Origin: a phage
Reading direction: 5' to 3' (one strand)
Sequence record: PQ374922.1
Length of the DNA stretch: 64,000 bases
A program made the position numbers and the translations under genes. The notes under the pieces were generated by a model. It had not been told where the DNA came from, did no database searches, and saw only the letters and a list, made by a program, of their open reading frames with translations. Position 1 is the stretch's first letter; each line of letters begins with the position of its first letter. This document shows, one piece after another, positions 2,824 to 45,423 of this stretch.

Positions 2824-3099
2824 ATGAAACGTTATCTGAAGCTGACGACTGTCCTTGAGTCGATCATAGAGTATTTCATCATGCAACACCTCCGCGCTGA
2901 CAACATGCATTTAGACGGTTGCCTGACGTATGACCACAAGATCATTGTCCATTCTGTTGAAGTGGTGGATGATGATCTGATGATTGCAAATGTAGAACAC
3001 TGTCTGTTTGATGAGTCGGTTGATGCGTACTGCCAACCACGGTTCGCAAAAGTCGAGCTAACAAATTGTTGGCCGCCGGAAATGGTTTTTCTATATTGA
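2824..3099 (+). CDS. Hypothetical small protein (about 91 aa)
   Basis: ATG at 2824 with GAGAGG RBS, just downstream of the previous stop. Confidence 0.35.
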   Translation: MKRYLKLTTVLESIIEYFIMQHLRADNMHLDGCLTYDHKIIVHSVEVVDDDLMIANVEHCLFDESVDAYCQPRFAKVELTNCWPPEMVFLY

Positions 3100-3190
3100 C
3101 GTAGAAAGTTAATATTCACGCAAGTTCGCGCTCCGCTTGGTCGCGCACCTTATAACACTAAGGTGTTAACTTTCTTTTCAATAAAAAGTA

Positions 3191-3220
3191 GTTTACATCT
3201 ATGAAAATGCAGTATATTAT
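3191..3220 (+). promoter_or_regulatory. T4-type early (sigma70-like) promoter
   Basis: A-rich upstream tract, -35 GTTTACA, about 17-nt spacer, -10 TATATT/TATTAT, roughly 70 nt upstream of the 3289 gene. Confidence 0.45.
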
Positions 3221-3288
3221 GTTCTCACTACACAGTCAGAACAACAATATGCCGCGGATACGGTCTTAATAACGAAAGGGTTTTTATT

Positions 3289-4125
3289 ATGTCATATATT
3301 CTTCATGTGGATTCTGGAACCAAAATTGAAATTGAAGGCAAAGACGTTGCGGCTATCCAGGCTGAAATCAAAGAAGCAGGTCTGATCATCGGAAACGTTA
3401 CCCTGCGCCGTATGGTTGAAGGTGTTCTTCAGGCTGCCAACGGCTTCGAACTGATTGAAGGTCTGAGCGCTGAAGAGAAGGAAGAAACTCAGCAGGCTCT
3501 GGCGCAAGCCCAAGAGCAAGCCCAAGCTGAAGTATCGCTGAAAGTCGCTGAAACTATTGATGCTGAAGCACCGATCTCTGCCGATGCATGTGAAGCCCCA
3601 GTGTCCGACGCCCCGGTAGACGCGGTTGAAGATGCAGTCAACGCGGCGCTGGAAGAAGGTAATCAGCCGTCCGACGCGAAAATCGGTTCCTTGGCGTCTT
3701 CTATGCTGAAAGAAGCATCGAAGGGTAAGACCCTGACCCCGCAGGCAGCGCTGGTAGAGCGTAAACGCCGTCACACCAAACGTGAGGAAATGGTTGACTT
3801 GGCTCGCGCTTCTAATCACGGTCCGGTCTTGGCGGCGATTGAAGCTGGTGTTGTCCCCGGCGTGTTCCTGAGCTACGTGAACCCAGACATGCGTTGGTTC
3901 CAGTTCCCGGTCACCGAACTGGCTAACCCTGAAAACCTTCACGCTCGCACCAATACGTATGTCGACGTTGCGCCTATCGTTTCCGGTGGCTGGGGCTTCA
4001 GTCTGTACGTGAACGGCAAGTCCTTCACCAAACGTCAGAAGATCAAAGAGTCTGATGCTGAGTCTCTGGTTAAGGCGATCAATGAATGGCTTCCACAGGC
4101 TCTGGCTGAAGCGAAAGCTGTGTAA
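3289..4125 (+). CDS. Hypothetical protein with central Ala/Gln/Glu-rich low-complexity linker (278 aa)
   Basis: ATG with upstream GAAAGGG; two globular segments separated by an AQAQEQAQAE linker. Confidence 0.55.
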   Translation: MSYILHVDSGTKIEIEGKDVAAIQAEIKEAGLIIGNVTLRRMVEGVLQAANGFELIEGLSAEEKEETQQALAQAQEQAQAEVSLKVAETIDAEAPISADACEAPVSDAPVDAVEDAVNAALEEGNQPSDAKIGSLASSMLKEASKGKTLTPQAALVERKRRHTKREEMVDLARASNHGPVLAAIEAGVVPGVFLSYVNPDMRWFQFPVTELANPENLHARTNTYVDVAPIVSGGWGFSLYVNGKSFTKRQKIKESDAESLVKAINEWLPQALAEAKAV

Positions 4126-4154
4126 ATTTAAGTTCAGAAACTGTTCAAAAGATG

Positions 4155-4185
4155 AAGGGGCTGCTATAATAGCAGCTCCTTTTGT
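4155..4185 (+). terminator. Hairpin with TATAAT in the loop plus T-run (terminator and/or early-promoter stem-loop)
   Basis: ggggctgc-TATAAT-agcagctcc followed by TTTTGTTTATT, between the 3289 gene and the kinase gene. Confidence 0.5.
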
Positions 4186-4200
4186 TTATTGGAGCAGTTT

Positions 4201-4860
4201 ATGTCCTACTCCCTGAAGGGGTTGATGAAGCGCCCCGTCCACACATTCTTTAAACCACCAGTCGTAAAGGGGATCTATCCAGCACGAGGGCAAATCTACT
4301 ACGTCAAAGGCTCCAATGGTAGCGGTAAATCCACTGTACCGTCTCAGCTGGCGGAGAGGGATCCTCAGGCGTATGTCGTGACCCATAACGGCAAGGTAAT
4401 GCTGACTGTCTGTCCTTCGTTCAACGTGGTCTGTATCGGTAAATATGACAAGTCGAAGTCCAAGGGGGTTGATTCCCTGAAGGACACTGAGCAGATGTTG
4501 TTCGCGTTGTCTATTGCTGACCAACCAGAATACTTGAAATATGATGTGATTTTCGAAGGTATCATTCCATCCACATTATTGAGTTCTTGGATCCCCCGCC
4601 TGACGCGCCCACCACGTGAATTGGTTGTGCTCTTTATGGACACTCCCCTTGAAACGTGTATCTCCCGCGTTAAATCACGTAACGGTGGTGTGGAATTCAA
4701 TGAAAGTCTGGTGGTCGAGAAGTGGGAGAGAGTTCATGACCATCGTCAACGACATAAAGACTTGTTCCCTACGGTAGCTGCGGGTATGATGAAGTCTCAC
4801 GGCCTAACGGTAGACCAGGCTGTGATGGCATTCCTCTGTCGTGATTTTGGGAGTATCTGA
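4201..4860 (+). CDS. P-loop NTPase/kinase of unknown specificity
   Basis: Walker A GSNGSGKST near residue 40; ATG at 4201 with GGAGCAG RBS; stop overlaps the start of the next gene (TGATG). Confidence 0.65.
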   Translation: MSYSLKGLMKRPVHTFFKPPVVKGIYPARGQIYYVKGSNGSGKSTVPSQLAERDPQAYVVTHNGKVMLTVCPSFNVVCIGKYDKSKSKGVDSLKDTEQMLFALSIADQPEYLKYDVIFEGIIPSTLLSSWIPRLTRPPRELVVLFMDTPLETCISRVKSRNGGVEFNESLVVEKWERVHDHRQRHKDLFPTVAAGMMKSHGLTVDQAVMAFLCRDFGSI

Positions 4861-5906
4861 TGGAAATCAAAGCAATTAACAACAATGACATGTTGAAGCA
4901 GGCTGTCTTGGCTATCCGTGAATTCGGGATCGAATCTGATCCTGGTAATGCTGAAATCAATACTGATAGCACCCGCTTCCTTGATGGTGTGACTATCACT
5001 GTTTCCGATATTCGTGACCGCTGGCTCTCCGTTGAAGGTCGCAACTCATCGGCTATCGCTGCCATCGGCGAGACCTTCTGGGTGTTGTCAGGTCGCAACG
5101 ACATAAAGTTCCTGTCACGCGTATTGCCTCGCGCTGCTAACTTTTCGGATGATGGGGTAACATGGCGAGCTGCTTATGGTCCGCGTCTGTACGCCCATGG
5201 CCAGCTGGATAGCGTTATCAACCGCCTGCGCAAGAACCCAAACACTCGCCAGGCGTACCTCACTATTTATGATCCGGCTTTGGATTCGGATGCTGGTCTG
5301 GCGAAGTTCAGCGAGAGCGGCGAAGCGAAGACCAAGGACATGGTGTGTAACCTGGCTCTGTTGTTCGCCATCGTTGAAGGTCGTCTGAACCTGACGGTCA
5401 TCAATCGCTCACAGGATGTTCTGTGGGGGATGAGTTCAATAAACTTCATTGAGTTCTCTATTCTTCAGGAAGTGATTGCTCGGGTGCTGGACGTTGACGT
5501 CGGTCAGTACAAGCTATTCTCTAATAATCTTCATTACTACAACAATGAAGTCAGCCAGAAGCAGCTGGGAAAGATCACGAAGGACACCAAAGTAGAAGCT
5601 GGGTTCATCAACTCCATGATTCACTTCACGAACGTGACCAACCAGAACCATATCCGCAATCTGTTCACTGGTGTGCTTCATCACTGTGATATCGGCAGCC
5701 CGTGGGAAACTGTGGTCGCCCACCTGAAGGAATATGATGCTGATCGTGGCCTGATTGTACAGATGGCGTACTGTCTGCACTGCAAACTGAACGAAAAGCT
5801 CATTAACCTGGACCTGATTCAGGATCATGGCTTGAACACCGCGCTCACGCATTCCCCGGTTGACCGCAAGATCATTGATCCTAAGTTCCTGGAAGGTGTA
5901 GTATGA
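4860..5906 (+). CDS. Thymidylate-synthase-fold pyrimidine C5 hydroxymethylase-like enzyme (gp42-like, divergent)
   Basis: TS-fold motifs: ETFWVLSGRNDIKFL (cf. ELLWFIKGSTNAKEL), RQAYLTIYDP, candidate catalytic Cys163 in DMVCNL, then 20 residues to RSQD as in TS (R166/D169). The canonical PCH and PFNIAS motifs are not conserved and there is a roughly 100-aa C-terminal extension. Confidence 0.7.
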   Translation: MEIKAINNNDMLKQAVLAIREFGIESDPGNAEINTDSTRFLDGVTITVSDIRDRWLSVEGRNSSAIAAIGETFWVLSGRNDIKFLSRVLPRAANFSDDGVTWRAAYGPRLYAHGQLDSVINRLRKNPNTRQAYLTIYDPALDSDAGLAKFSESGEAKTKDMVCNLALLFAIVEGRLNLTVINRSQDVLWGMSSINFIEFSILQEVIARVLDVDVGQYKLFSNNLHYYNNEVSQKQLGKITKDTKVEAGFINSMIHFTNVTNQNHIRNLFTGVLHHCDIGSPWETVVAHLKEYDADRGLIVQMAYCLHCKLNEKLINLDLIQDHGLNTALTHSPVDRKIIDPKFLEGVV

Positions 5907-6472
5907 TGTATCCAAATCTTGAATTCTTTACGGGGCGCAAGCGCTCCGGTAAGGACTTCTGTTTGGAGTCCCTGATCAGTTATCACCACTTACAGGGTGA
6001 TATGGACATCCAGCGCCTTTCGTTCTCGGATGAACTGCGCCGTGTGGCCAACTACATCTACCCATGGCTCCCAGCGGAGGTAGAGGATGCCGTGAAGGAC
6101 GTTCCTTACGTGCACCCTGATAACCCCAAGGGTTTAACTCCACGGCAGATCTGGCTTCATCTAGGCAGCGATACGGGCTTGCGTTACGTACAACCCGATC
6201 TGTTCCTGGCATTCTTCAAGCGCTTCCAGCTTCCTCTGGTAGAGCAGAACCCCCACGTTCATTATATCGTGAGCGATCTGCGTACCCCTCAGGAATATGA
6301 ATGGGCGCTGAGTACGAAATGTCCTATCACCCGTATTTCAAAGGCCGACCGTGCTGGTATCATAGAGGACGATATAGAGGCTTTCATTGACCAAATGAAA
6401 GTGGACTACGAATTCCTCAATCCATTTGATGGTTGGGAACCGTTCGTTAAATTCTACGGAGAACGTAAATGA
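5903..6472 (+). CDS. 1: Deoxynucleoside monophosphate kinase (T4 gp1-like)
   Basis: FFTGRKRSGKDF (cf. T4 gp1 FLSGVKRSGKDT) and HYIVSDLRTPQE (cf. YYIVPDTRQDHE); ATGA overlap with the upstream gene. Confidence 0.8.
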   Translation: MMYPNLEFFTGRKRSGKDFCLESLISYHHLQGDMDIQRLSFSDELRRVANYIYPWLPAEVEDAVKDVPYVHPDNPKGLTPRQIWLHLGSDTGLRYVQPDLFLAFFKRFQLPLVEQNPHVHYIVSDLRTPQEYEWALSTKCPITRISKADRAGIIEDDIEAFIDQMKVDYEFLNPFDGWEPFVKFYGERK

Positions 6473-7023
6473 TCACAGCAGGGCATATCAAAAGCCTGCT
6501 CGAACTCCAAAAGGCCACTAACGTGGCCTACTTTGGGGAAGAGTGGAAGAATGTATGGAGTCAGAACGCAGTCATCAACTCTATCTATCGTGAGTGGGCA
6601 GAGTTCCTTGATGAAACCACCCGTGACTGGAAGGTTTATGGCAACGACATCGGGTTTGATCATACGAACGCAGTTTATGAACTGGTGGACGTGGTACACT
6701 TCATGTTGTGCTTCATCCTTGTGGACCGCACCAAAGGTGAGATCGAAGAAGAATTTGAAGTCCTTAGTAATCGCGAATTCACCCCATCTGCTTTGGGTGT
6801 TGTAGGGCATCGCAATGTTACGTACCGCCTTGGGCAATTCATGAACGATCCTTGCGTTGAGACTCTCATGTTCTTCCTGTCGTCTGCGTGTTCTTATATG
6901 GAGATCGACATTGAGACTTACATACTGGCACACAAACGCAAGAACGATCGCAATCGCCTGCGTGCTGCTGGTGGCGCGGATTACGATAAGTCCGCAGAAA
7001 CCCCTCTGACCCTGGAGTTCTAA
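6469..7023 (+). CDS. All-alpha NTP pyrophosphatase (dCTPase/dUTPase gp56-like or MazG-like)
   Basis: Acidic helical pattern EWAEFLDETTRDW...YELVDVVHF typical of all-alpha NTP-PPases; ATGA overlap with gp1. Confidence 0.5.
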   Translation: MITAGHIKSLLELQKATNVAYFGEEWKNVWSQNAVINSIYREWAEFLDETTRDWKVYGNDIGFDHTNAVYELVDVVHFMLCFILVDRTKGEIEEEFEVLSNREFTPSALGVVGHRNVTYRLGQFMNDPCVETLMFFLSSACSYMEIDIETYILAHKRKNDRNRLRAAGGADYDKSAETPLTLEF

Positions 7024-7565
7024 TGTTTACAGTCGTCGTTTCATACCATGCGGAGAACGCTGCTCAGGCATCCTCCAAATTCGCCGAGCACATCATCGGC
7101 GGCGGACATAATGTATTCCTTACTGAATACAACAGGCCTGTTAAACCGGGCGACGGTCTTTCGGCGACTGTTACGCATAAGATCGCCAGCGAGCAACCAG
7201 AGTCTCTGTTCAGGATGATCGAAGAGTATGCCGGTGGTGGCACCAAGATACCAGATGAACTGGTAGACGTCTATTTTGAAGGCTCGATCTATTACATCCA
7301 CGCTATGCCAAAGGATGTAACCATTGAACAGATGATGTATATCCTGAATATAGCACTGAACACTGCGTGCATCAACCGCACGAACTACAACAATCTGCGC
7401 AATATGTACCTAACCGACCGGCATAATGACGCATCGTCGCTTGTTGAGACAATGTCCCTGAAGAGCATCCAAGAGGCGGTTAACATTTTGTCCCAGAAGG
7501 TTATGGGTGTAGAATTATTAACGACGATCAACAATAAAGAGGAAGTGAAATGGCCAGTTCATTAA
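7023..7565 (+). CDS. Hypothetical protein (180 aa)
   Basis: ORF translationally coupled (TAATG) to the upstream gene; no motif recognised. Confidence 0.5.
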   Translation: MFTVVVSYHAENAAQASSKFAEHIIGGGHNVFLTEYNRPVKPGDGLSATVTHKIASEQPESLFRMIEEYAGGGTKIPDELVDVYFEGSIYYIHAMPKDVTIEQMMYILNIALNTACINRTNYNNLRNMYLTDRHNDASSLVETMSLKSIQEAVNILSQKVMGVELLTTINNKEEVKWPVH

Positions 7566-8635
7566 TGGACCGCATGCTGAAGGTTGCTAAGAAACACGAT
7601 GACCAGGCTTCAGTGCTGTCCAAATCCGACGCTCTGGAACCGTCTATCATCTGTTCTACTGGTATTCCCCTGATCGATATCGCATGGTCTGGGCGTATTG
7701 ACGGCGGTCTGATCTCCGGTATCAAGATGATGGTGGGTGATTCCCGTACCTTCAAAACGATGTTCGGTCTGGTAGACGTCAAGGCGTACATGGACAAGTT
7801 CCCTGATGCTATCTGCGTCTTTGCGGACTCAGAAAAGGGTGCCAACGCCGATTACTGGACCTCTATGGGCATTGACATGGACCGCGTCCTGTACGTACCG
7901 ATCGACAACGTTGAACAGACCAAGATCCGCTTGCTGCAGATCCTACAGGAAGTCAAGAAAGGCGACCATGTTATAATCTTCATCGACTCTATCAGCCAAC
8001 TTCCCTCCACCAAGGAAGTTGAAGATGCGATCAAAGGGAACGACACTCAAGACATGACCCGCGCCCGTGCCCTTAACAGCTTCTGGCGTGTCATGACTCC
8101 CGAAATCAACAGCAAAAATCTCGTGTGTGTTTGGATCAACTCCTATTACGATGAGATCGGCAACCAGTATGCCGAGCCCAACATCAAAGGCGGCAAGCAG
8201 GGCTTCTTATCCTCCAACTTGATCTGGTTTATCACCCGTTCTCAGGTGAAGGAAGACAAAGATCTGCTGGGCTGGAACTTCAACATAAGCATCATGAAAG
8301 GTCGCCATGTCAAAGAGAAAGCCAAGCTCCCTGTGACGGTACTGTACAACGGTGGTATTGATCGCTGGAGCGGCCTGCTTGAGATCGCTCGTGCTCTGGG
8401 TTATGTTGATATGCCGTCTTCCGGTTGGTATGTGCGTACAGCCAAGGGTGGTTTCGATCCTGAGAAGGAAAAGAAATATCAAAAGCGTCAGATGGATGAT
8501 GATTTCTGGTATCCGCTGCTGGAGAATGTCAACTTCGCCGATGACGTGAAGAAAATGTTCGGTGTTTCTAACGGTACTGTTATGCCTGCTAACATGCTGG
8601 AGCAAATGGACCATGTTATCAACACAAGCGAATAA
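7550..8635 (+). CDS. uvsX: UvsX RecA-like recombinase
   Basis: Strong similarity by eye to T4 UvsX: FADSEKGANADYWTSMGIDMDRV, IIFIDSISQL, DMTRARALNSFWRVMTPEI. Confidence 0.9.
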   Translation: MASSLMDRMLKVAKKHDDQASVLSKSDALEPSIICSTGIPLIDIAWSGRIDGGLISGIKMMVGDSRTFKTMFGLVDVKAYMDKFPDAICVFADSEKGANADYWTSMGIDMDRVLYVPIDNVEQTKIRLLQILQEVKKGDHVIIFIDSISQLPSTKEVEDAIKGNDTQDMTRARALNSFWRVMTPEINSKNLVCVWINSYYDEIGNQYAEPNIKGGKQGFLSSNLIWFITRSQVKEDKDLLGWNFNISIMKGRHVKEKAKLPVTVLYNGGIDRWSGLLEIARALGYVDMPSSGWYVRTAKGGFDPEKEKKYQKRQMDDDFWYPLLENVNFADDVKKMFGVSNGTVMPANMLEQMDHVINTSE

Positions 8636-8942
8636 CAGTGGAGGGGGAGGAGACTCCCCCAATAACTACACAATCATCGACCCTGGTGCTGATCAGCTGG
8701 CGATCATCAAGATCACTTCTGGCAAATTCCGTGGTGTTCAATTCCGGTTCGGCAAGGTGGCCATCAACGAAGTGGACGGCGAACCCCGCCTGTCTTTCGT
8801 GACTGATATATTGAAGAAACCATTGCGTCTGATGTTTGTGAATTTGAAAGAAAATGACTTGTTCACTGAGGTGTCAGGGGATATCCTTGTAGAACTCATG
8901 CAGCGTAATGCTCAGGAATATAATAAATTTTTGGTGGGATGA
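8562..8942 (+). CDS. Hypothetical protein overlapping the 3' end of uvsX (occupies the gp40 position)
   Basis: ORF in an alternative frame beginning 74 nt inside uvsX; hydrophobic N-terminus MFLTVLLCLLTCW. An in-frame GTG further downstream could be the true start. Confidence 0.35.
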   Translation: MFLTVLLCLLTCWSKWTMLSTQANNSGGGGDSPNNYTIIDPGADQLAIIKITSGKFRGVQFRFGKVAINEVDGEPRLSFVTDILKKPLRLMFVNLKENDLFTEVSGDILVELMQRNAQEYNKFLVG

Positions 8943-8954
8943 CCGAGGGGTCCT

Positions 8955-9437
8955 ATGTTAACACAACAGTCTCTTAAAGAAATTCTGCATTACGACGAAG
9001 ACACTGGGTGGTTTACATGGCTGACGGATCGTGGTGGTACTGCCAAAGCCGGAACAAGAGCTGGGTCTTTAAAACCTGACGGATACAGGGTTATAAGAAT
9101 CGGCGAGAAGAAGCATTTAGAACACAGGTTGGCATTTCTCTATAAAACTGGTTCATGGCCAAAGAAATTGGTCGACCACAAAAATCGTATAAGAGACGAC
9201 AACCGCTGGTTGAACCTTAGAGAATCTAATGAAAGCCAGAATGCCGTCAACACAGATTTGTATAGCCACAACACCACAGGCGCGAGGGGTGTATTTCGAT
9301 ACAAGAATAGATGGTGTGTGCAAATCAGAGTTAATGGGAAATATAGATCGTTTGGGTATTACGATGAATTCGAAGAAGCAAAGGAAATGGCGAACAAAGC
9401 CTACAAAGAATTGTTCGGAGAATTTTATCAAGGTTAG
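8955..9437 (+). CDS. HNH homing endonuclease with AP2-like DNA-binding domain
   Basis: GYRVIRIGEKKHLEHRLAFLY...VDHKNRIRDDNRWLNLRE (HNH) and GVFRYKNRWCVQIRVNGKYRSFGYYDEFEEA (AP2-like); inserted between the uvsX block and gene 41. Confidence 0.85.
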   Translation: MLTQQSLKEILHYDEDTGWFTWLTDRGGTAKAGTRAGSLKPDGYRVIRIGEKKHLEHRLAFLYKTGSWPKKLVDHKNRIRDDNRWLNLRESNESQNAVNTDLYSHNTTGARGVFRYKNRWCVQIRVNGKYRSFGYYDEFEEAKEMANKAYKELFGEFYQG

Positions 9438-9477
9438 TGTTTGGTCTCTGTCAAACCAGATAATTTAGGAACGCAAT

Positions 9478-10902
9478 ATGTTACTCGAATCTGTCGTGCT
9501 TTCACAGTTGATTTACAATGAAGATTACCAAAGAAAGATCCTGCCGTACCTGAAAGCCGATTATTTTGACAACGAAGGCGAAAAGGTCATCTTTGGTCTG
9601 ATTGACAGTTATACCTCAGAGTACAATGCCCGCCCGTCTGTCGAAGCACTATCTATAATTCTTGAACGGACAAAGCTGAACGAATATGTGTTTGACCAGG
9701 CGGTATCTGCCCTGGAGAACATCAACGACAACACCTTCAATGAAGAGTGGCTGGCGAAGGAAACCGAGGCTTGGGCGCGGCAAAAGGCCGTACACAACGC
9801 AATCAAGACCGCCGTTAACATCTACGGTGACGAGAAGCGCAAGGACGAGATGAACAACATCCCGACCATGTTGCAGGAAGCCCTGGCGATCCGGTTTGAT
9901 TCATACCTCGGTCACATCTATTGGGAGATGGCGGCAGAGCAGTATGACCACATGAACTCCAACGAGGCCAAGATCCCGTTCGCAGTTGAGATATTCAATA
10001 AGGCGACACGTGGTGGCGTTGGTAAGAAGACACTGAACATCGTAACAGGTGCGATCAACGCAGGTAAGACCACAACGCTGATTGACCTGACCGCAGGGTA
10101 CTCTGAGCAGGGGCTGAACGTCTTTGTCTTCACCCTTGAAGTGGCTGAGAACGTCTGGCGACACCGTCTTGATGCCCGTATCATGCGTCGCGACTTTGAG
10201 TCTTTAGAGAAACTCACAAGGCACGAGTATATTGCAACGATAGAGAAGCTCCGCAGTCGCCAAGATGGTGCGCCCAAGGGTGATATCGTCATCAAGGAAT
10301 ATCCTTCCGGTACTGGACACACAGGTTTATTCCGCCGCGATATCCTTGAGTACATCCAGGCAACTGGTCGTGCTCCTGATGTTATCGTTATTGACTATCT
10401 TGGCGAAGCTGCTTCCTCGCGCCTGCCTGCCCACCTGATGCAGAACACGAACGTCTATTACACGTCTGTGGCTCGTGAGTTTCGTGCGCTGGGATTTGAG
10501 TTTGATGTCCCTGTATGGACTGGTATGCAGTTCAATCGTGAGAATCAGAATAGCACTGATGGTGGAATCAGTGATTTGGCAGATGCTATCGGTATTCCGA
10601 AGGTGGCCGACTTCATCATGGCATTCTATGCTCCTGACGAACTGGCGGCGGTCAAGAAAGCCCGAGCCTCAATACTCAAGAACCGTTATGCCAACAAGCA
10701 GAAGCTGAAATCATTCCTGTTTGGTATGGACCAAGACAAACAGATCCTGTTTGACCTGGACTGGAATGAAGTTAAGAAGGACCTGACTGAGGCTGAGGCC
10801 AAATATGTCGAAAACGTACACATCAAACATGACCTCAACAAGTCCGGGGCTGCTGTCAGCGATGAGCAGAAAGCCCAAACGGTCAATAATTGGAAATTCT
10901 AG
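9478..10902 (+). CDS. 41: Replicative DNA helicase (gp41, DnaB-like)
   Basis: 474 aa; Walker A GAINAGKTTT; DnaB-like architecture; synteny with uvsX. Confidence 0.9.
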   Translation: MLLESVVLSQLIYNEDYQRKILPYLKADYFDNEGEKVIFGLIDSYTSEYNARPSVEALSIILERTKLNEYVFDQAVSALENINDNTFNEEWLAKETEAWARQKAVHNAIKTAVNIYGDEKRKDEMNNIPTMLQEALAIRFDSYLGHIYWEMAAEQYDHMNSNEAKIPFAVEIFNKATRGGVGKKTLNIVTGAINAGKTTTLIDLTAGYSEQGLNVFVFTLEVAENVWRHRLDARIMRRDFESLEKLTRHEYIATIEKLRSRQDGAPKGDIVIKEYPSGTGHTGLFRRDILEYIQATGRAPDVIVIDYLGEAASSRLPAHLMQNTNVYYTSVAREFRALGFEFDVPVWTGMQFNRENQNSTDGGISDLADAIGIPKVADFIMAFYAPDELAAVKKARASILKNRYANKQKLKSFLFGMDQDKQILFDLDWNEVKKDLTEAEAKYVENVHIKHDLNKSGAAVSDEQKAQTVNNWKF

Positions 10903-40716: not shown

Positions 40717-40917
40717 TCACTTACGTTTGCGCTTGTTCTTTCCATAGGTCTTCGCCTTCTTCTTGCGGGTTACAGATGGACGACCATGTCCTGGTTCGCC
40801 GGGTGTGCCACCCTGAGTGTAACGACGCCCCCACATGTCATCACCACGATGCGCGGCGACGATTTCCATTTCTGACAGCGCTAGCATAGCAGCAACAGCC
40901 GCAGATGATTTCTTCAT
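40717..40917 (-). CDS. Small protein with hydrophobic N-terminus and highly basic C-terminal tail (66 aa)
   Basis: MKKSSAAVAAMLAL ... RKKKAKTYGKNKRKRK. Confidence 0.35.
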   Translation of the reverse strand: MKKSSAAVAAMLALSEMEIVAAHRGDDMWGRRYTQGGTPGEPGHGRPSVTRKKKAKTYGKNKRKRK

Positions 40918-41450
40918 TTTGTTTCCCCCTTGGCAGCATAGGACAGTGCCTGAACAATCATTACAGCCAGATCGATCGGCGAGTAGGTGCTGTTCAGATC
41001 TTCTCGAACACTCTGCTCGATTTCTTCATCAGACTGGACCACAGGACAGTTCTTCCCCTGGCGACGGCGTTCTGCGTTGATCATATCACGCAGGAGCAGA
41101 TCGGTGAAGGAGTACTCGTCAAAGTTCTCCAGGTATTTCTGAATCCCAGTGGATACAGGGGTTGGCTCCGGCTCCTGTGCCCTAGGATCTTTCAGGGCAG
41201 CAACAGTGGCATCAATATCCCACAGAGGGTTCATCAGTAACAGAAGATTAACTGTTTCTCCTGACTCTGAAGTCGGGTTATTTCCCAGCACCTTGTAAAG
41301 ATTCTTCAGGGTGCTGTCAAAGGTCAGAACGGTCTGTGCCAGTTCTTCATAAGTTGGTTTGGTAGTCATCAGCGTTTGCTCCGGCGTTTGTTCTTCATCT
41401 TTCTTGGCTTGTCTGTCATGTTCCTGTCCACGAAAAAGGGGATAGGGCAA
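40914..41450 (-). CDS. Hypothetical protein (178 aa; start possibly internal)
   Basis: ATGA overlap with the downstream gene. Confidence 0.45.
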   Translation of the reverse strand: MPYPLFRGQEHDRQAKKDEEQTPEQTLMTTKPTYEELAQTVLTFDSTLKNLYKVLGNNPTSESGETVNLLLLMNPLWDIDATVAALKDPRAQEPEPTPVSTGIQKYLENFDEYSFTDLLLRDMINAERRRQGKNCPVVQSDEEIEQSVREDLNSTYSPIDLAVMIVQALSYAAKGETK

Positions 41451-41481
41451 TAATACCCTATCCCCTTTTATTGAAGAACGA

Positions 41482-41895
41482 TTAGTCTTCAGATTCTACT
41501 TTGCCGCCTCGTAGATCCCGAACTGGTTTACCGTCCGGTGCCATCACATAAATGGTGTTGATTGTCTCAAACCAAGACAGCTGGTCAACACCCTCGGTGT
41601 ATGGGGTCACCGGAACAGAAGTCTTGACCTCTTTGCCTTTCGTGTTCGGATGTTCAACCACATCCAAGAACGCACATTTCCCGCTCGGAAGGATCACACC
41701 ATCAGTAAACAGCACGATCTTCTTGCGAGGGTTGCTGGCCTCACCCAGGCACACCACCAGATGATGGATCATCTCGGGGCGGTCAATCAACATGTCGTCT
41801 TTGATAATCCCTTGCTTGATAGCAGAGATCACCACTTCATCCAACAGAGCCTGCTGTTGGTCCAGTGTCAGGGATTCAGTGAGTTTCACGCTCAT
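41482..41895 (-). CDS. Hypothetical protein (137 aa)
   Basis: ORF; no motif recognised. Confidence 0.5.
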   Translation of the reverse strand: MSVKLTESLTLDQQQALLDEVVISAIKQGIIKDDMLIDRPEMIHHLVVCLGEASNPRKKIVLFTDGVILPSGKCAFLDVVEHPNTKGKEVKTSVPVTPYTEGVDQLSWFETINTIYVMAPDGKPVRDLRGGKVESED

Positions 41896-41899
41896 GACA

Positions 41900-42469
41900 T
41901 CAGCCTTTGAAGTTAATCGGTTTCTGAATACCAGCGTCGAACGCGGCCTGGGTACGGGTATCGCTCACCACCTGGCAGGTCTTGTCAAGGTCGATGCGCG
42001 GGTAGCCGAACATGCCAGCAATCAACGAACCAGGGAATTGAGCCAGCTTGGTTTCGTACATTGCGCAGATATCCAGCTTCTTGGTCTGGCTGATGCGGAA
42101 TTCATCACGCCCAGAACTGATCACCACCTGGATCTCTTTGTACAGGCTGGAATCGAACTGAATATTCTGCTCCTGGATCCACTGCATGACGGCCTTGGAA
42201 CCATCAGCGCCATAACGCCCTTCGAACGTGCCTTTGATCACTTCCTTCAGGCCGTCTTTATACATGTCAGGAATCTGCGCCGTCTCCTGAACTTTGAGCG
42301 TGTAGTTGCTCAGGTAGTTCTCGGAGTCTTTGTTGAACTTCTTGACCTGCTGCTCAGTGCGGTTGAAGTCGTTGAAGTAGCTGATGACTGTACTGATGCC
42401 GAGAATCACTATACCCAGCAAAGCCAAACCAACTATCCAACCTGTTGCGATACCCTTAGATTGAGACAT
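41900..42469 (-). CDS. LemA-family membrane protein
   Basis: N-terminal TM helix plus C-terminal YETKLAQFPGSLIAGMFGY matching the LemA YN-x-x-I-x-x-FP-x-N-x-x-A-x-x-FGF pattern; typical length of about 190 aa. Confidence 0.5.
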   Translation of the reverse strand: MSQSKGIATGWIVGLALLGIVILGISTVISYFNDFNRTEQQVKKFNKDSENYLSNYTLKVQETAQIPDMYKDGLKEVIKGTFEGRYGADGSKAVMQWIQEQNIQFDSSLYKEIQVVISSGRDEFRISQTKKLDICAMYETKLAQFPGSLIAGMFGYPRIDLDKTCQVVSDTRTQAAFDAGIQKPINFKG

Positions 42470-42487
42470 TCTTACTTCCTCTTTTGA

Positions 42488-43600
42488 TTAAAAATTAAAC
42501 GGATAACGACGGCCACCATTGTACTCCATTCGCTGTAATATGAAAATTGCGGTGAACGGCAGACAGCCTAGCAGAACAACAATCACAACTTCCCAGGTCT
42601 TGAGTTCCCGCCACTTCAGGTACTCCATTTCCTTCATCTCAACGCGGTTGTAGCCTTTGGTGATGTTAGCGACAACATCAGCCATGACACCGACACCCAT
42701 GTCGTGTCCTGTGAGAGCCATGCCATTGCGAGAGTGGAGTTCACGGTTATGCATACCATCAGCGAACGAAGTGCTCTTACCCCAGTTGATCTTCAGGTCT
42801 TTGTTGATGTCGGTCACGACGATAACGTCGTTCTTTTTACCACCATCCCAAGCATAGACCAAGCCCTGGAAGTATTCAACTGGCTGACCGGAAGTCACAA
42901 CCCAGACGATATTGACCTGACGTGAAGCGCCTAATGTTTTCAGAGTATTGTTCAGATGGTCGTTCCAGTATGTGGTCGGTAACGCCAGACCAGACACATT
43001 CAGTACACGAGTGACGCGATAGTAGTCATAGACCTCAGGGTACTTGGGAATCTTGTCTTTGAAGCGCTCAGCAAACTGCTGGTCTGAACGAGAGAACAGA
43101 GAGTCTTTGTTACCCAGCACATAGTTCATGTAGGAATGCTCACGGGCTGCGGGTTCGCCGATCTGAACCTGCGCCCAGCGCGGGGGCTGACCAAGACCGC
43201 GACGATCAATGCGGTCAATCGTCAGATTACCGACAGTCGTCAACACATCCCAGTCCACGTCATATGAATGCTCATAACATGTACTGCAATGGCGAGTGCG
43301 GGTACAGGACTTGCTGCTGCCGGAGCCGGAGCATGATGTGGTGTAGTAGCAGTTGCATTCATATGAATGCTCACAGCTCACCTTATTCCGCTCCTTTGCA
43401 GTGACGTACCCGTTCAGGATCTCAACATCCCCTGAACTGCCAAGGGAGAACGCAGCATAAGTCCCCGCCTGAATCAGACAGGATAGCACCACTACAATCG
43501 CGGTCGCTATCAGAGTCTCTTTCGGCTCATGGGTCTTGCGGTGGTAGATCACAAACAGGATAGCCAGTACCAATGGCACACCAAACAGGAGGTAGATCAT
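42488..43600 (-). CDS. Membrane protein with N- and C-terminal TM helices and a Cys-rich extracytoplasmic domain (370 aa)
   Basis: TM helices at both ends; cluster CEHSYECNCYYTTSCSGSGSSKSCTRTRHCSTC; 4-nt overlap with the downstream gene. Confidence 0.55.
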   Translation of the reverse strand: MIYLLFGVPLVLAILFVIYHRKTHEPKETLIATAIVVVLSCLIQAGTYAAFSLGSSGDVEILNGYVTAKERNKVSCEHSYECNCYYTTSCSGSGSSKSCTRTRHCSTCYEHSYDVDWDVLTTVGNLTIDRIDRRGLGQPPRWAQVQIGEPAAREHSYMNYVLGNKDSLFSRSDQQFAERFKDKIPKYPEVYDYYRVTRVLNVSGLALPTTYWNDHLNNTLKTLGASRQVNIVWVVTSGQPVEYFQGLVYAWDGGKKNDVIVVTDINKDLKINWGKSTSFADGMHNRELHSRNGMALTGHDMGVGVMADVVANITKGYNRVEMKEMEYLKWRELKTWEVVIVVLLGCLPFTAIFILQRMEYNGGRRYPFNF

Positions 43601-43815
43601 TTGGATTCACCGACGAGCTGCGCCTTGGTCATCCCAAGGAGTTGATCTTTATGCTCAGGATTGGCACCGTTCTTTAACAACAAATCCCAACGCTCTTCAT
43701 GGTACTGTGGGTCCAGTGCTTCATCAAATGTGATGTGGTGGCGGAACATAATAGTTGCCACTGAATGGACACAGTGAGCGATTGCGCGCTTCATTGTTCG
43801 GGTATTCTTGATCAT
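43597..43815 (-). CDS. Hypothetical protein (72 aa)
   Basis: ORF overlapping the start of the 370-aa gene. Confidence 0.4.
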   Translation of the reverse strand: MIKNTRTMKRAIAHCVHSVATIMFRHHITFDEALDPQYHEERWDLLLKNGANPEHKDQLLGMTKAQLVGESK

Positions 43816-43983
43816 TTGGATTCTCCCATGACGATAACGGAAGCGCCAAAAGTCGCTTCCATGTTGAGTAGAGACATATCTTCAATTCGTTGCATTGCCA
43901 TGATGTATATTCTTGCAAAAAGAAAGGGGAACGGGCTAATAATAACCCATTCCCCTTTATTGAAGGAAGCAACCCCAGTCAGA

Positions 43984-44151
43984 TTACTTTTTCTTCAGCT
44001 CTTCCAGTTTGGCTTCGATCTGGTCCAGAATCTCTTTGCCTTTCTGAACAATCACTTCACCATCTTGCGCGTGTTTACGGAAGACCAGAGCACCAGCGAT
44101 GAAGCCGACAACCGCGCCAGGAAGCGCATAAACCAGCAGATCTTGTAACAT
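43984..44151 (-). CDS. Small membrane protein (55 aa) expressed from a late promoter
   Basis: ATG with GAGGA RBS; one TM helix (LLVYALPGAVVGFIAGALVF) plus amphipathic C-terminus; exact TATAAATA 29 nt upstream. Below the 60-aa cutoff of the ORF track. Confidence 0.45.
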   Translation of the reverse strand: MLQDLLVYALPGAVVGFIAGALVFRKHAQDGEVIVQKGKEILDQIEAKLEELKKK

Positions 44152-44179: not shown

Positions 44180-44187
44180 TATTTATA
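44180..44187 (-). promoter_or_regulatory. T4-type late promoter (TATAAATA)
   Basis: Exact TATAAATA on the minus strand, directly after the stop of the 411-aa gene and upstream of the 55-aa ORF. Confidence 0.5.
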
Positions 44188-45423
44188 TCAGCGTTTCAAG
44201 AGTGTCATGAGGTTGACGCTGCTGGACTTCGGCTTGTCCTCAACCTTGCGCACAGGCATCTTCAGGTTCGTACATACCTCGGACGGTTCCCAGCGCGTAC
44301 CCTTTTGCAGGTGCCAGATATGCAGAGGAACACCAGTCTCAAAGAACACAGGCATCTTCCACTTCTGGACGCCTGGAACGTGCCCTACAGGAGCCTTTTC
44401 GCACAACAGGGTATCTGGCAGCCAGAGCGAACGGGCTTCCCAGAGCGCTGCGCAGGAGTATTCAGGCCAGACGCGTTCCATGTAGTCTATCTCATCCCAG
44501 GTACGCTCTGCGTCCCACCCGATGTAACGGGTATTCTTCAGTCGGAAGAATTTCTTCAGCCAACAAGCGCCGGAGGTTTCAAAGTTCAGGCGGTTGATGA
44601 ACGTCAGGTGCCCGAACTCAGCCACACAATCCTGGAACGCCTGCTCAAGGTCGGCCTCAAGGATGTCACACTCTTCATCCGTGATAGCACAACCGTTGAT
44701 CTTTTTCTTCCCGTGTTTAGTCACCCAATCGTCACGGTTGGACAAGAACGCCGCGCCATTACGGTTGGACTCGCTTCCATCACGATCACGCAGCATGAAG
44801 CCAGGGACGTCAATGGTGTATTCGTTCCCGAAGACCATGTTCAGGGCTTCCAGGAAGTTCCAGGCGCTCAGGCGACCGAAGTATTTCCAGGACATCGCCG
44901 TGTCCCACAGCTGGGTGAATTGTTCTGTCTTATCGATGCACACCAACATCCCACGGAAAGCGTCATATTGAGTACGGCCAGCCAGCCAGTCAATATAGGA
45001 CTGAACACACGGGATCATCTTGGACTTGCGGTAGCGACAGTCGGTATCGAATCGCATGCGTTCAAAGTTCAGATTATACCAATCAGAGAAGCGCTGCATC
45101 TCTTCCTTAGACTGAGGCGGCACAGGGAACTCACTGTAGATCGTCCACGGTCCGACGGCGTTATAGCAACAACCCCACAGGAATGCCATCCAGATCTTGC
45201 GCTCGACTTTCTGTTCGAGGCTGATGCCTTCAGTGACTTCGATCGCATAGTCCATCAGACGCATCTGCTGGTTGTGCTCTTCTGTGTAGGACAGCGCCTC
45301 CACCCAAGCCTTGAGCAGGTACATGCGATTCTCAGGCTTGCGATAATCAACAGCCAGGTCAATCGGGTACTTCCATTCAGCCGGAGGCGTATAGCCCGTC
45401 GGCATTTTAGATAAATGATGCAT
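44188..45423 (-). CDS. Hypothetical enzyme-sized protein (411 aa, Trp/aromatic-rich)
   Basis: Long ORF, last in an operon with the P-loop kinase; no nucleotidyltransferase KxDG or other motif recognised. Confidence 0.6.
   Translation of the reverse strand: MHHLSKMPTGYTPPAEWKYPIDLAVDYRKPENRMYLLKAWVEALSYTEEHNQQMRLMDYAIEVTEGISLEQKVERKIWMAFLWGCCYNAVGPWTIYSEFPVPPQSKEEMQRFSDWYNLNFERMRFDTDCRYRKSKMIPCVQSYIDWLAGRTQYDAFRGMLVCIDKTEQFTQLWDTAMSWKYFGRLSAWNFLEALNMVFGNEYTIDVPGFMLRDRDGSESNRNGAAFLSNRDDWVTKHGKKKINGCAITDEECDILEADLEQAFQDCVAEFGHLTFINRLNFETSGACWLKKFFRLKNTRYIGWDAERTWDEIDYMERVWPEYSCAALWEARSLWLPDTLLCEKAPVGHVPGVQKWKMPVFFETGVPLHIWHLQKGTRWEPSEVCTNLKMPVRKVEDKPKSSSVNLMTLLKR

Follow-up and report, generated by a model that had tools for sequence, protein, structure and literature searches.

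The sequence analysed here, called the window in what follows, is a 64,000-nucleotide stretch of phage DNA (sequence record PQ374922.1). It is approximately 98% identical to Escherichia phage YX22 and comes from a large virulent phage in the subfamily Aglimvirinae (family Ackermannviridae). Two neighboring genes are the subject of this study; these, and all other features given below with positions in the window, are on the minus strand. The first gene of the pair encodes a 370-amino-acid (aa) TPM-like membrane protein (42488..43600), which matches PHROG 2087 (E=7e-163) and no Pfam family. The second encodes a 189-aa LemA-like protein (41900..42469), which matches PHROG 1383 (E=5e-86). The 2.8 kb surrounding the pair are 98.4% identical to phage YX22 and approximately 90% identical to the Limestone-type phages of Dickeya. 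A first-pass annotation, made from the sequence of the window without database searches, had delimited both open reading frames (ORFs) correctly and had described the genes as overlapping. They do not overlap: an 18-nucleotide spacer (42470..42487), which contains a GAGGA ribosome-binding site for the LemA-like gene, lies between them, and the 4-nucleotide overlap at this locus is that of a 72-aa ORF with the 370-aa gene.

Profile comparisons identify the 189-aa protein as a strongly diverged LemA homologue. When the phage family was aligned with hhalign to 24 bona fide LemA proteins, the match had a probability of 97.2% and an E-value of 3e-11 over 143 columns. A profile built from 44 homologues of the protein had a single significant match among the PDB sequences, the LemA crystal structure 2ETD (E=4.9e-4); this hmmsearch match is colinear and nearly full length, with residues 32-160 of the query aligned to residues 10-155 of the chain. 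One member of the family from a jumbo phage is an intermediate sequence that matches both the phage and the LemA profiles, and some depositors have already named homologues "LEMA protein". The LemA-aligned region (residues 18-162; 41984..42418) retains the LemA motifs at both of its ends, namely the Y-x-N following the transmembrane (TM) helix (SYFN) and the C-terminal F-P-G-x6-F-G-Y motif (FPGSLIAGMFGY; F-P-G...F-G-[FY] in the family). The central LemA motifs LIPNLV, ENYP, and GTENR are not conserved in the phage family. The architecture also fits LemA: the protein has one N-terminal TM helix and an all-helical model, and its 189 aa compare with 185-208 aa in bacterial LemA proteins. The first-pass annotation named the right family, although the resemblance is not obvious in a single-sequence scan. 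The match to Pfam LemA (PF04011) covered only residues 125-158 and reached 13.8 bits (E=0.052) against a threshold of 26.2 bits. Sub-threshold LemA matches were found in nine of the 44 homologues (best E=0.0016), and none of the homologues carried a precomputed Pfam domain. Single-sequence searches of either protein of the pair against PDB sequences returned chance-level matches only, and NCBIfam gave no meaningful match to the pair.

Homologues of the 370-aa protein were found in at least 486 phage records. A cluster search at 50% identity gave 2,099 clusters with homologues, 724 of which match at E<=1e-30, essentially all of them over the full length. The AlphaFold2 (AF2) model of the protein has a mean predicted local distance difference test score (pLDDT) of 91.3 and a predicted template modelling score (pTM) of 0.79. 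The first-pass annotation had proposed a membrane protein with an anchor at each end. Anchoring at both ends was upheld, whereas the single helix at each end was not, because the N-terminal anchor is a hairpin and the protein consequently has three TM segments. TM helix 1 comprises residues about 1-20 by hydropathy (43541..43597 for residues ~2-20; a helix at residues 7-20 in the AF2 model) and forms a hairpin with TM helix 2 (residues ~29-53; 43442..43516; model and hydropathy). TM helix 3 (residues ~335-357; 42530..42598; hydropathy, model, and charge) is followed by a short basic tail that is predicted to be cytoplasmic.

In the model, residues ~199-330 of this protein (42611..43006) form the alpha/beta/alpha sandwich fold of solved TPM domains. 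The domain contains an invariant W-x-G-G-K-K-N-D motif, and the first two core motifs of TPM domains are recognizable in it (QVNIVWVV and W-D-G-G-K-K-N-D-V-I-V-V). The segment QVNIVWVVTSGQPVEYFQGLVYAWDGGKKNDVIVV can be aligned to QVVVVVVPS...EYANRLFREWGIGQKEKNNGVLLLV, the core of the TPM protein that partners LemA in Thermotoga. An hhalign comparison with an alignment of bacterial TPM proteins that partner LemA covered the whole domain, with an E-value of 0.003 and a probability of 10%; comparisons of the 370-aa family with single bacterial TPM partners were weak (probabilities of 21% and 3%). The Pfam TPM family (PF04536) did not match the protein itself at E<=1, while below-threshold matches occurred in 10 of 47 homologues (best E=1.8e-4). 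A profile of the 370-aa family had no significant match among PDB sequences. The first-pass annotation had listed LemA, DUF2207, and TPM as candidate families for the two proteins; for the partner, TPM is the right one, and it is also the family of the bacterial LemA partner.

Between the N-terminal hairpin and the TPM-fold domain lies a beta-rich Cys/His domain (residues ~57-158; 43127..43432), modelled as long beta-hairpins with strands at residues 57-74, 79-91, 98-109, 114-121, and 150-158. The nine-cysteine cluster of the first-pass annotation is real, but only seven of the nine cysteines belong to it (residues 76-108); the other two, C41 and C346, are located in TM helices and are not conserved. 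The conserved Cys/His cluster spans residues 76-111 (43268..43375). In an alignment of 257 homologues, C76, H78, C82, C108, and H111 are each conserved in 96-99% of the sequences, and we refer to them as the Cys3His2 set. The remaining four cysteines come and go in pairs. Of the homologues, 228 have both C84 and C105, 19 have neither, and 10 have only one of the two; for C90 and C99, the corresponding numbers are 174, 64, and 19. Because of this co-occurrence, the ectodomain nearly always contains either five or seven cysteines. In the model, C76-x-H78 and C108-x-x-H111 appear at the tips of two beta-hairpins, and the register of the strands would place the covarying cysteines opposite one another. 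We infer that the domain carries a zinc-ribbon-like metal site and, in addition, one or two disulfides, for which C84/C105 and C90/C99 are the candidates. The proposal that the cluster is either disulfide-rich or metal-binding thus agrees with the data, in that the domain appears to be both. A Foldseek search with the 370-aa model revealed no convincing relative of the Cys/His domain among solved structures, only weak matches of low probability. FliF rings and pore-forming toxins were among these; they were rejected as relatives since the matches reflect only the long beta-hairpins.

The topology of both proteins was deduced from hydropathy, charge bias, and cysteine patterns. In the LemA-like family, the stub preceding the single N-terminal TM helix (residues ~8-30; 42380..42448) carries a net positive charge and the 20 residues following it a net negative charge, which implies an N-in/C-out orientation. 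C135 and C165 of the LemA-like protein (41975..42067) are both present in 26 of the 44 homologues and both absent in the other 18; as neither occurs without the other, they are a candidate disulfide. In the 370-aa protein, the loop between TM helices 1 and 2 (HRKTHEPKE) is predicted to be cytoplasmic, and charge counts in the 257 homologues fit this prediction weakly. Given the co-occurring cysteines in both proteins and the charge bias at the TM helix of the LemA-like protein, the soluble domains of both are most likely periplasmic, in line with the external domain originally proposed. The cysteine covariation is suggestive rather than proof, as a small number of evolutionary events could explain it.

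We surveyed 88 phage and metagenome loci that contain the large gene; two of these end at a contig edge, leaving 86 that could be evaluated. In every one of the 86, a LemA-like gene is located downstream on the same strand. The genes are directly adjacent in 84 loci, and in the other two (L039 and L051) 0.5-1.3 kb of DNA is inserted between them. The pairing with a larger membrane partner, which the first-pass annotation had suggested, is therefore obligate. Grouped below 60% identity, the 86 loci represent 36 lineages. No third conserved gene was detected: no other family within 2.5 kb of the pair is common to more than three of the 36 lineages. The pairwise identities of the two proteins correlate with one another (r=0.93 overall and 0.73 among distant pairs), and the proteins diverge to the same extent (37.6% versus 38.4%). 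The distribution and the correlated divergence of the sequences provide good support for an obligate, mobile two-gene cassette that is always inherited as a unit.

The cassette is found in Ackermannviridae, T4-like Aeromonas phages, T5-like Vibrio phages, the jumbo phages 121Q, RaK2, and GAP32, and jumbo phages of Erwinia, as well as in phages of Acinetobacter, Sinorhizobium, Xanthomonas, and Pseudomonas. The named hosts among the listed phage records with a homologue of the 370-aa protein are all Proteobacteria, which fits a periplasmic location of the soluble domains. In phage ICP1, the pair is present only in eight DRC-2017 isolates (MW794142-MW794149; positions 2989-4582 of locus L003 in isolate 2017_DRC_72). 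There it is located inside a block of ten genes that have no earlier gp numbers, and its nearest relative, at 63% identity, is from Aeromonas phage vB_AdhM_TS9; the sequences point to a recent horizontal gain. Nine non-mobilizable "plasmids" from Vibrio, Variovorax, and Photobacterium, which measure 0.6-0.94 Mb, also carry the pair (CP099927.1, NZ_CP015514.1, NZ_CP062152.1, NZ_CP097357.1, NZ_LR594690.1 and its relatives, and NZ_CP090497.1). The plasmid regions inspected in Vibrio (L006, with the pair at 8001-9733) and Variovorax (L178, with the pair at 5869-7688) consist almost entirely of short hypothetical genes. In 121Q (L005, 1092-2997) and RaK2 (L176, 1-781), the pair is preceded by a gene for a T5-type metallopeptidase and, beyond this single gene, by one for a TelA-like (toxic anion resistance) protein, and this arrangement may be a small envelope-stress neighborhood. 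Among 5,426 complete Escherichia coli genomes, a DNA-level search did not reveal the phage pair or lemA. A canonical lemA gene is present on contig CAVCLW010000025.1 (L099), which is labelled Escherichia coli; since it has no DNA match in the 5,426 complete genomes, the assignment of this bin to E. coli is doubtful.

For comparison, we collected 80 loci with LemA, which represent many phyla of Bacteria and some of Archaea, and classified the 66 genes directly downstream of LemA. A single TPM family accounts for 36 of these 66. In Thermotoga and Neobacillus, the PF04536 TPM gene begins 0 nucleotides after the LemA gene. In a Thermincola contig (L091, 3501-7312), the LemA and TPM genes are followed directly by genes for NfeD and flotillin (FloA); the TPM partner in this contig is clearly of the TPM type, though without a precomputed Pfam match. 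The adjacency of NfeD and FloA ties the cellular LemA-TPM module to membrane-microdomain systems. The phage pair and the bacterial module (PF04011 with PF04536; for example, the Thermotoga locus of 2ETD) have several features in common: a LemA protein of ~190 aa with one TM helix is encoded beside a membrane TPM protein, on the same strand and at tight spacing, and a TM helix follows the TPM domain. They also differ. The gene order in phages is reversed, with the TPM-like gene first. The bacterial partners consist of a signal peptide, TPM domain, TM helix, and Gly-rich tail; in the phage protein, a two-TM hairpin takes the place of the signal peptide, a Cys3His2 beta-domain of ~100 aa is added, and the tail is short, basic, and devoid of a Gly-rich stretch. 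The E-V-G-Y-G-L-E-G motif of bacterial partners is likewise absent.

On these grounds, we consider it very probable that the pair is a phage-borne, strongly diverged counterpart of the two-gene LemA-TPM membrane module of bacteria. More tentatively, the two proteins may form a periplasm-facing complex in the inner membrane that serves to maintain or remodel the envelope during infection. Module identity and envelope function taken together, we assign this reading a probability of roughly 0.5. Under it, both proteins would insert into the inner membrane of the infected host, expose their soluble domains to the periplasm, and assemble into a heteromeric complex; a metal ion, together with one or two disulfides, would stabilize the Cys/His domain. 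Like cellular TPM proteins, the complex would scaffold or chaperone other complexes of the membrane or envelope, and its purpose would be to keep the envelope functional until lysis. The pair would then be an accessory host-manipulation module and not a component of the virion.

This proposal draws on what has been reported for cellular TPM proteins. TPM domains are accessory or assembly factors of membrane complexes and have been proposed as chaperone-like partners of PspA-type envelope-stress systems (PMC11237479, PMC13456599). Envelope stress in Flavobacterium columnare is accompanied by a joint rise of LemA and a TPM gene (PMC13236525). The NfeD and FloA genes beside the Thermincola pair, and the TelA-like gene close to the pair in 121Q and RaK2, belong to the same analogy. 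The thylakoid lumen proteins TLP18.3/Psb32/LMTP1 and the bacterial proteins BA41, BA42, Rhom172_1776, PG0361, and cg2496 are located on the non-cytoplasmic side of an energy-transducing membrane, and several of this set are accessory factors of membrane complexes (PMC13456599, PMC11237479, bioRxiv 10.1101/2024.10.28.620569). The TPM-fold domain of the phage protein is only 11-16% identical to solved TPM proteins, and it differs from them in its fusion to a novel Cys/His domain and in its three TM anchors; the resemblance does not imply a photosystem or respiratory partner for the phage protein. The YdjH-type TPM protein of Bacillus subtilis, encoded in PspA/flotillin operons, is similar in that a membrane TPM protein and another membrane-associated protein cooperate to maintain the envelope (PMC11237479). 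However, the phage pair is not accompanied by a PspA, band-7, or NfeD gene, and the YdjH-type protein acts at the cytoplasmic face.

Several points weigh against the proposed envelope function and, in part, against the module identity. The sequence support for the TPM domain is marginal (the hhalign match with E=0.003 at 10% probability given above, and a best Foldseek E-value of 5e-3), the canonical E-V-G-Y-G-L-E-G segment is not conserved in the phage family, and neither the 189-aa nor the 370-aa protein reaches a Pfam gathering threshold. The charge bias on which the topology of the 370-aa protein in part depends is weak in the 257 homologues. The bacterial LemA-TPM module itself lacks an established function, and the analogy to it therefore has little mechanistic weight. 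The literature that we searched contains no experiment or expression data for the pair; hence its timing, localization, and complex formation are deduced. Nor did this literature contain work on the function of LemA or of the phage pair, the matches to LemA in combination with phage being author names (Lemay, Lemaitre). Finally, the accessory and horizontally mobile distribution, as seen in ICP1, suits a function in conflict at least as well as one in housekeeping.

A related but rather doubtful possibility is that the pair constitutes a previously unrecognized, widespread envelope module of phages and megaplasmids in which a periplasmic LemA/TPM complex, with the metal-binding Cys3His2 domain as its sensor, detects or blocks events at the inner membrane (such as entry of a second phage genome or membrane damage). 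A function in superinfection exclusion, or as a barrier against other phages, is somewhat less likely still; the first-pass annotation had suggested this role along with lysis timing and envelope-stress manipulation. The periplasm-facing complex would then block the entry of competitor genomes or periplasmic steps of infection. Phage proteins that act in this manner include Imm and Sp of T4 and gp15 of HK97. The T4 proteins, a purely functional analogy, resemble the pair in being non-virion membrane proteins of virulent phages, but no relationship in sequence or fold to the pair was found. Exclusion proteins of the Imm/Sp type are small, lineage-specific, and encoded by single genes, whereas the pair is a conserved two-gene module with cellular homologues. 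The probable inner-membrane location with periplasmic domains fits exclusion, as does the position between the DNA polymerase and DNA-modification genes on one side and rIIA/rIIB on the other, from which early or middle expression is assumed. The accessory and mobile character described above for ICP1, together with a genomic context that differs in every lineage, is also as expected for such a function, and the nine megaplasmids would likewise profit from excluding phages. Conservation, however, is unusually high, at ~35-45% identity and with nearly invariant motifs between unrelated phage families that infect different host genera; this suggests that the target is biochemical and conserved, not specific to a competitor. 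That a homologous cellular module is distributed across Bacteria and Archaea also argues against exclusion. In a PADLOC search, the partner had no match to a defence family, and the LemA-like protein had only a 17.6-bit match to LeoBC. This match involves the TM/coiled-coil part of the protein and was judged non-specific; LeoBC was thus rejected as an identity for it.

Control of lysis timing is improbable as the function of the pair, which in that case would be an antiholin-like element or a periplasmic sensor for lysis inhibition, with a logic comparable to that of T4 RI. Its membrane and periplasmic location would be suitable, rIIA/rIIB follow ~1.7 kb downstream of the pair and have the same orientation, and a small membrane ORF driven by a late promoter lies just upstream of the pair. 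ViI-like phages show lysis inhibition, and no holin or lysis-control gene had been identified in them (PMC3184105). However, none of the lineages examined has lysis genes beside the pair or shows a lysis gene that co-occurs with it, and the megaplasmids that carry the pair presumably do not lyse cells. Most ICP1 isolates are without the pair, and these isolates lyse their hosts normally. We regard a periplasmic enzyme as equally improbable. Here the TPM-like domain and the metal-binding Cys/His domain would hydrolyse or bind a phosphorylated envelope molecule, and LemA would be the membrane partner. Phosphatase or ATPase/ADPase activity and Ca2+ or Mg2+ binding have been reported for some TPM domains, but the activities are weak, the reports of them are disputed, and there are TPM proteins that do not bind metals or nucleotides (PMC13456599). 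The phage family has an invariant G-G-K-K-N-D motif, a nearly invariant Cys3His2 set, and many conserved aromatic and acidic residues; nevertheless, catalytic residues are not assignable and the canonical G-Y-G-L-E-G segment of TPM domains is not retained.

A virion structural protein, as which PHROG 1383 is annotated and homologues of the 189-aa protein are named in many RefSeq records (LIMEstone1, S118, May, 121Q, RaK2, and others), is very improbable, since the LemA-like protein has a membrane anchor and an obligate partner with three TM segments while tailed phages have no membrane, the gene is located among replication and DNA-modification genes and not among structural genes, the original GenBank records say LemA or hypothetical, and ORF194 and ORF195 of LIMEstone1 are missing from the 39 virion proteins determined for that phage by electrospray ionization tandem mass spectrometry (ESI-MS/MS). 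ORF195 shares a 90% cluster with the LemA-like protein of the window. Membrane debris is a known contaminant of virion preparations (PMC10892097). The origin of the PHROG 1383 label was not traced; the RaK2 paper contains neither ORF174 nor ORF175, and the ViI virion proteome, with 18 uncharacterized particle-associated ORFs as cited in PMC3184105, could be its source.

The minus-strand order of genes around the pair is DNA polymerase, genes for nucleotide metabolism and thymidine hypermodification, a 55-aa membrane ORF, the 72-aa ORF, the 370-aa gene, the 189-aa gene, a 137-aa ORF, a gene for a DUF7181 protein, rIIA, and rIIB. The 72-aa ORF (43597..43815) overlaps the start of the 370-aa gene by 4 nucleotides (ATGA), and the 137-aa ORF (41482..41895) begins 4 nucleotides past the LemA-like gene; neither is part of the conserved pair in other lineages. 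A terminator-like hairpin with a 16-bp stem and a T-run is located upstream of these four ORFs (43923..43958), and a second hairpin terminator (41433..41469; fold -36.9 kcal/mol, z=-6.5) closes the unit after the 137-aa ORF. Terminators were annotated in LIMEstone1 at the equivalent place for the first and likewise for the second. The two hairpins are nearly identical (AAAGGGGA..GGGT.ATTATT..CCC..TCCCCTTT), and the motif occurs at just these two sites in the window, compared to ~0.07 chance matches expected. The arrangement in the sequence strongly supports a compact co-transcribed unit that consists of the 72-aa, 370-aa, 189-aa, and 137-aa ORFs and is bracketed by the two terminators. A search for sigma-70, late, and middle promoters in the interval from the upstream terminator to the unit gave no convincing candidate.

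Other features of the neighborhood were recorded as well. A candidate ORF of 28 codons (MAMQRIEDMSLLNMEATFGASVIVMGESK; 43816-43900) ends in an ATGA overlap with the 72-aa ORF; AV101, CBA120, and similar relatives have one or two longer small ORFs at this position. Upstream of the first terminator, the 55-aa ORF (43984-44151) encodes a glycine-zipper membrane protein. A T4-type late-promoter motif, TATAAATA (44180-44187), lies directly upstream of this ORF, the strong terminator follows it, and the authors of LIMEstone1 annotated a late promoter at the equivalent place. The 55-aa protein could be a small membrane protein related to lysis, in a phage family without an identified holin. The adjacent 411-aa protein (44188-45423) is an amino acid:DNA transferase (PF18724, E=1e-59) and part of the thymidine hypermodification locus; in relatives, a P-loop nucleotide kinase and a deoxyribonucleotidase are annotated farther upstream of the transferase. 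At the other end of the unit, the listed TTG start of the DUF7181 ORF (40914-41450) is located inside the terminator hairpin, and its true start is probably the ATG near 41369.

LemA and TPM proteins are found across Bacteria and Archaea, TPM proteins also in chloroplasts and animals, and the module that they form is without an established function. A diverged version of it is a fixed cassette in at least 486 phages and at least 36 lineages, including Ackermannviridae used for biocontrol. In databases its proteins currently appear as "hypothetical" or "putative membrane protein", or under the label "virion structural protein", which is probably wrong. With these results, two PHROG families can be annotated correctly, a new and probably periplasmic Cys3His2 domain can be defined, and phage deletion or plasmid expression offers tractable genetics for the role of LemA-TPM at the membrane. 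Should exclusion or lysis control prove true, the pair would have a bearing on the design of phage cocktails. If the pair is indeed a widespread envelope module with a Cys3His2 sensor, it could be the first system in which the ubiquitous LemA-TPM module of bacteria becomes accessible to experiment, because infection offers simple phenotypes. We consider the pair to be of moderate interest: it is widespread yet unannotated, and phage genetics could make the question of what LemA-TPM does testable.

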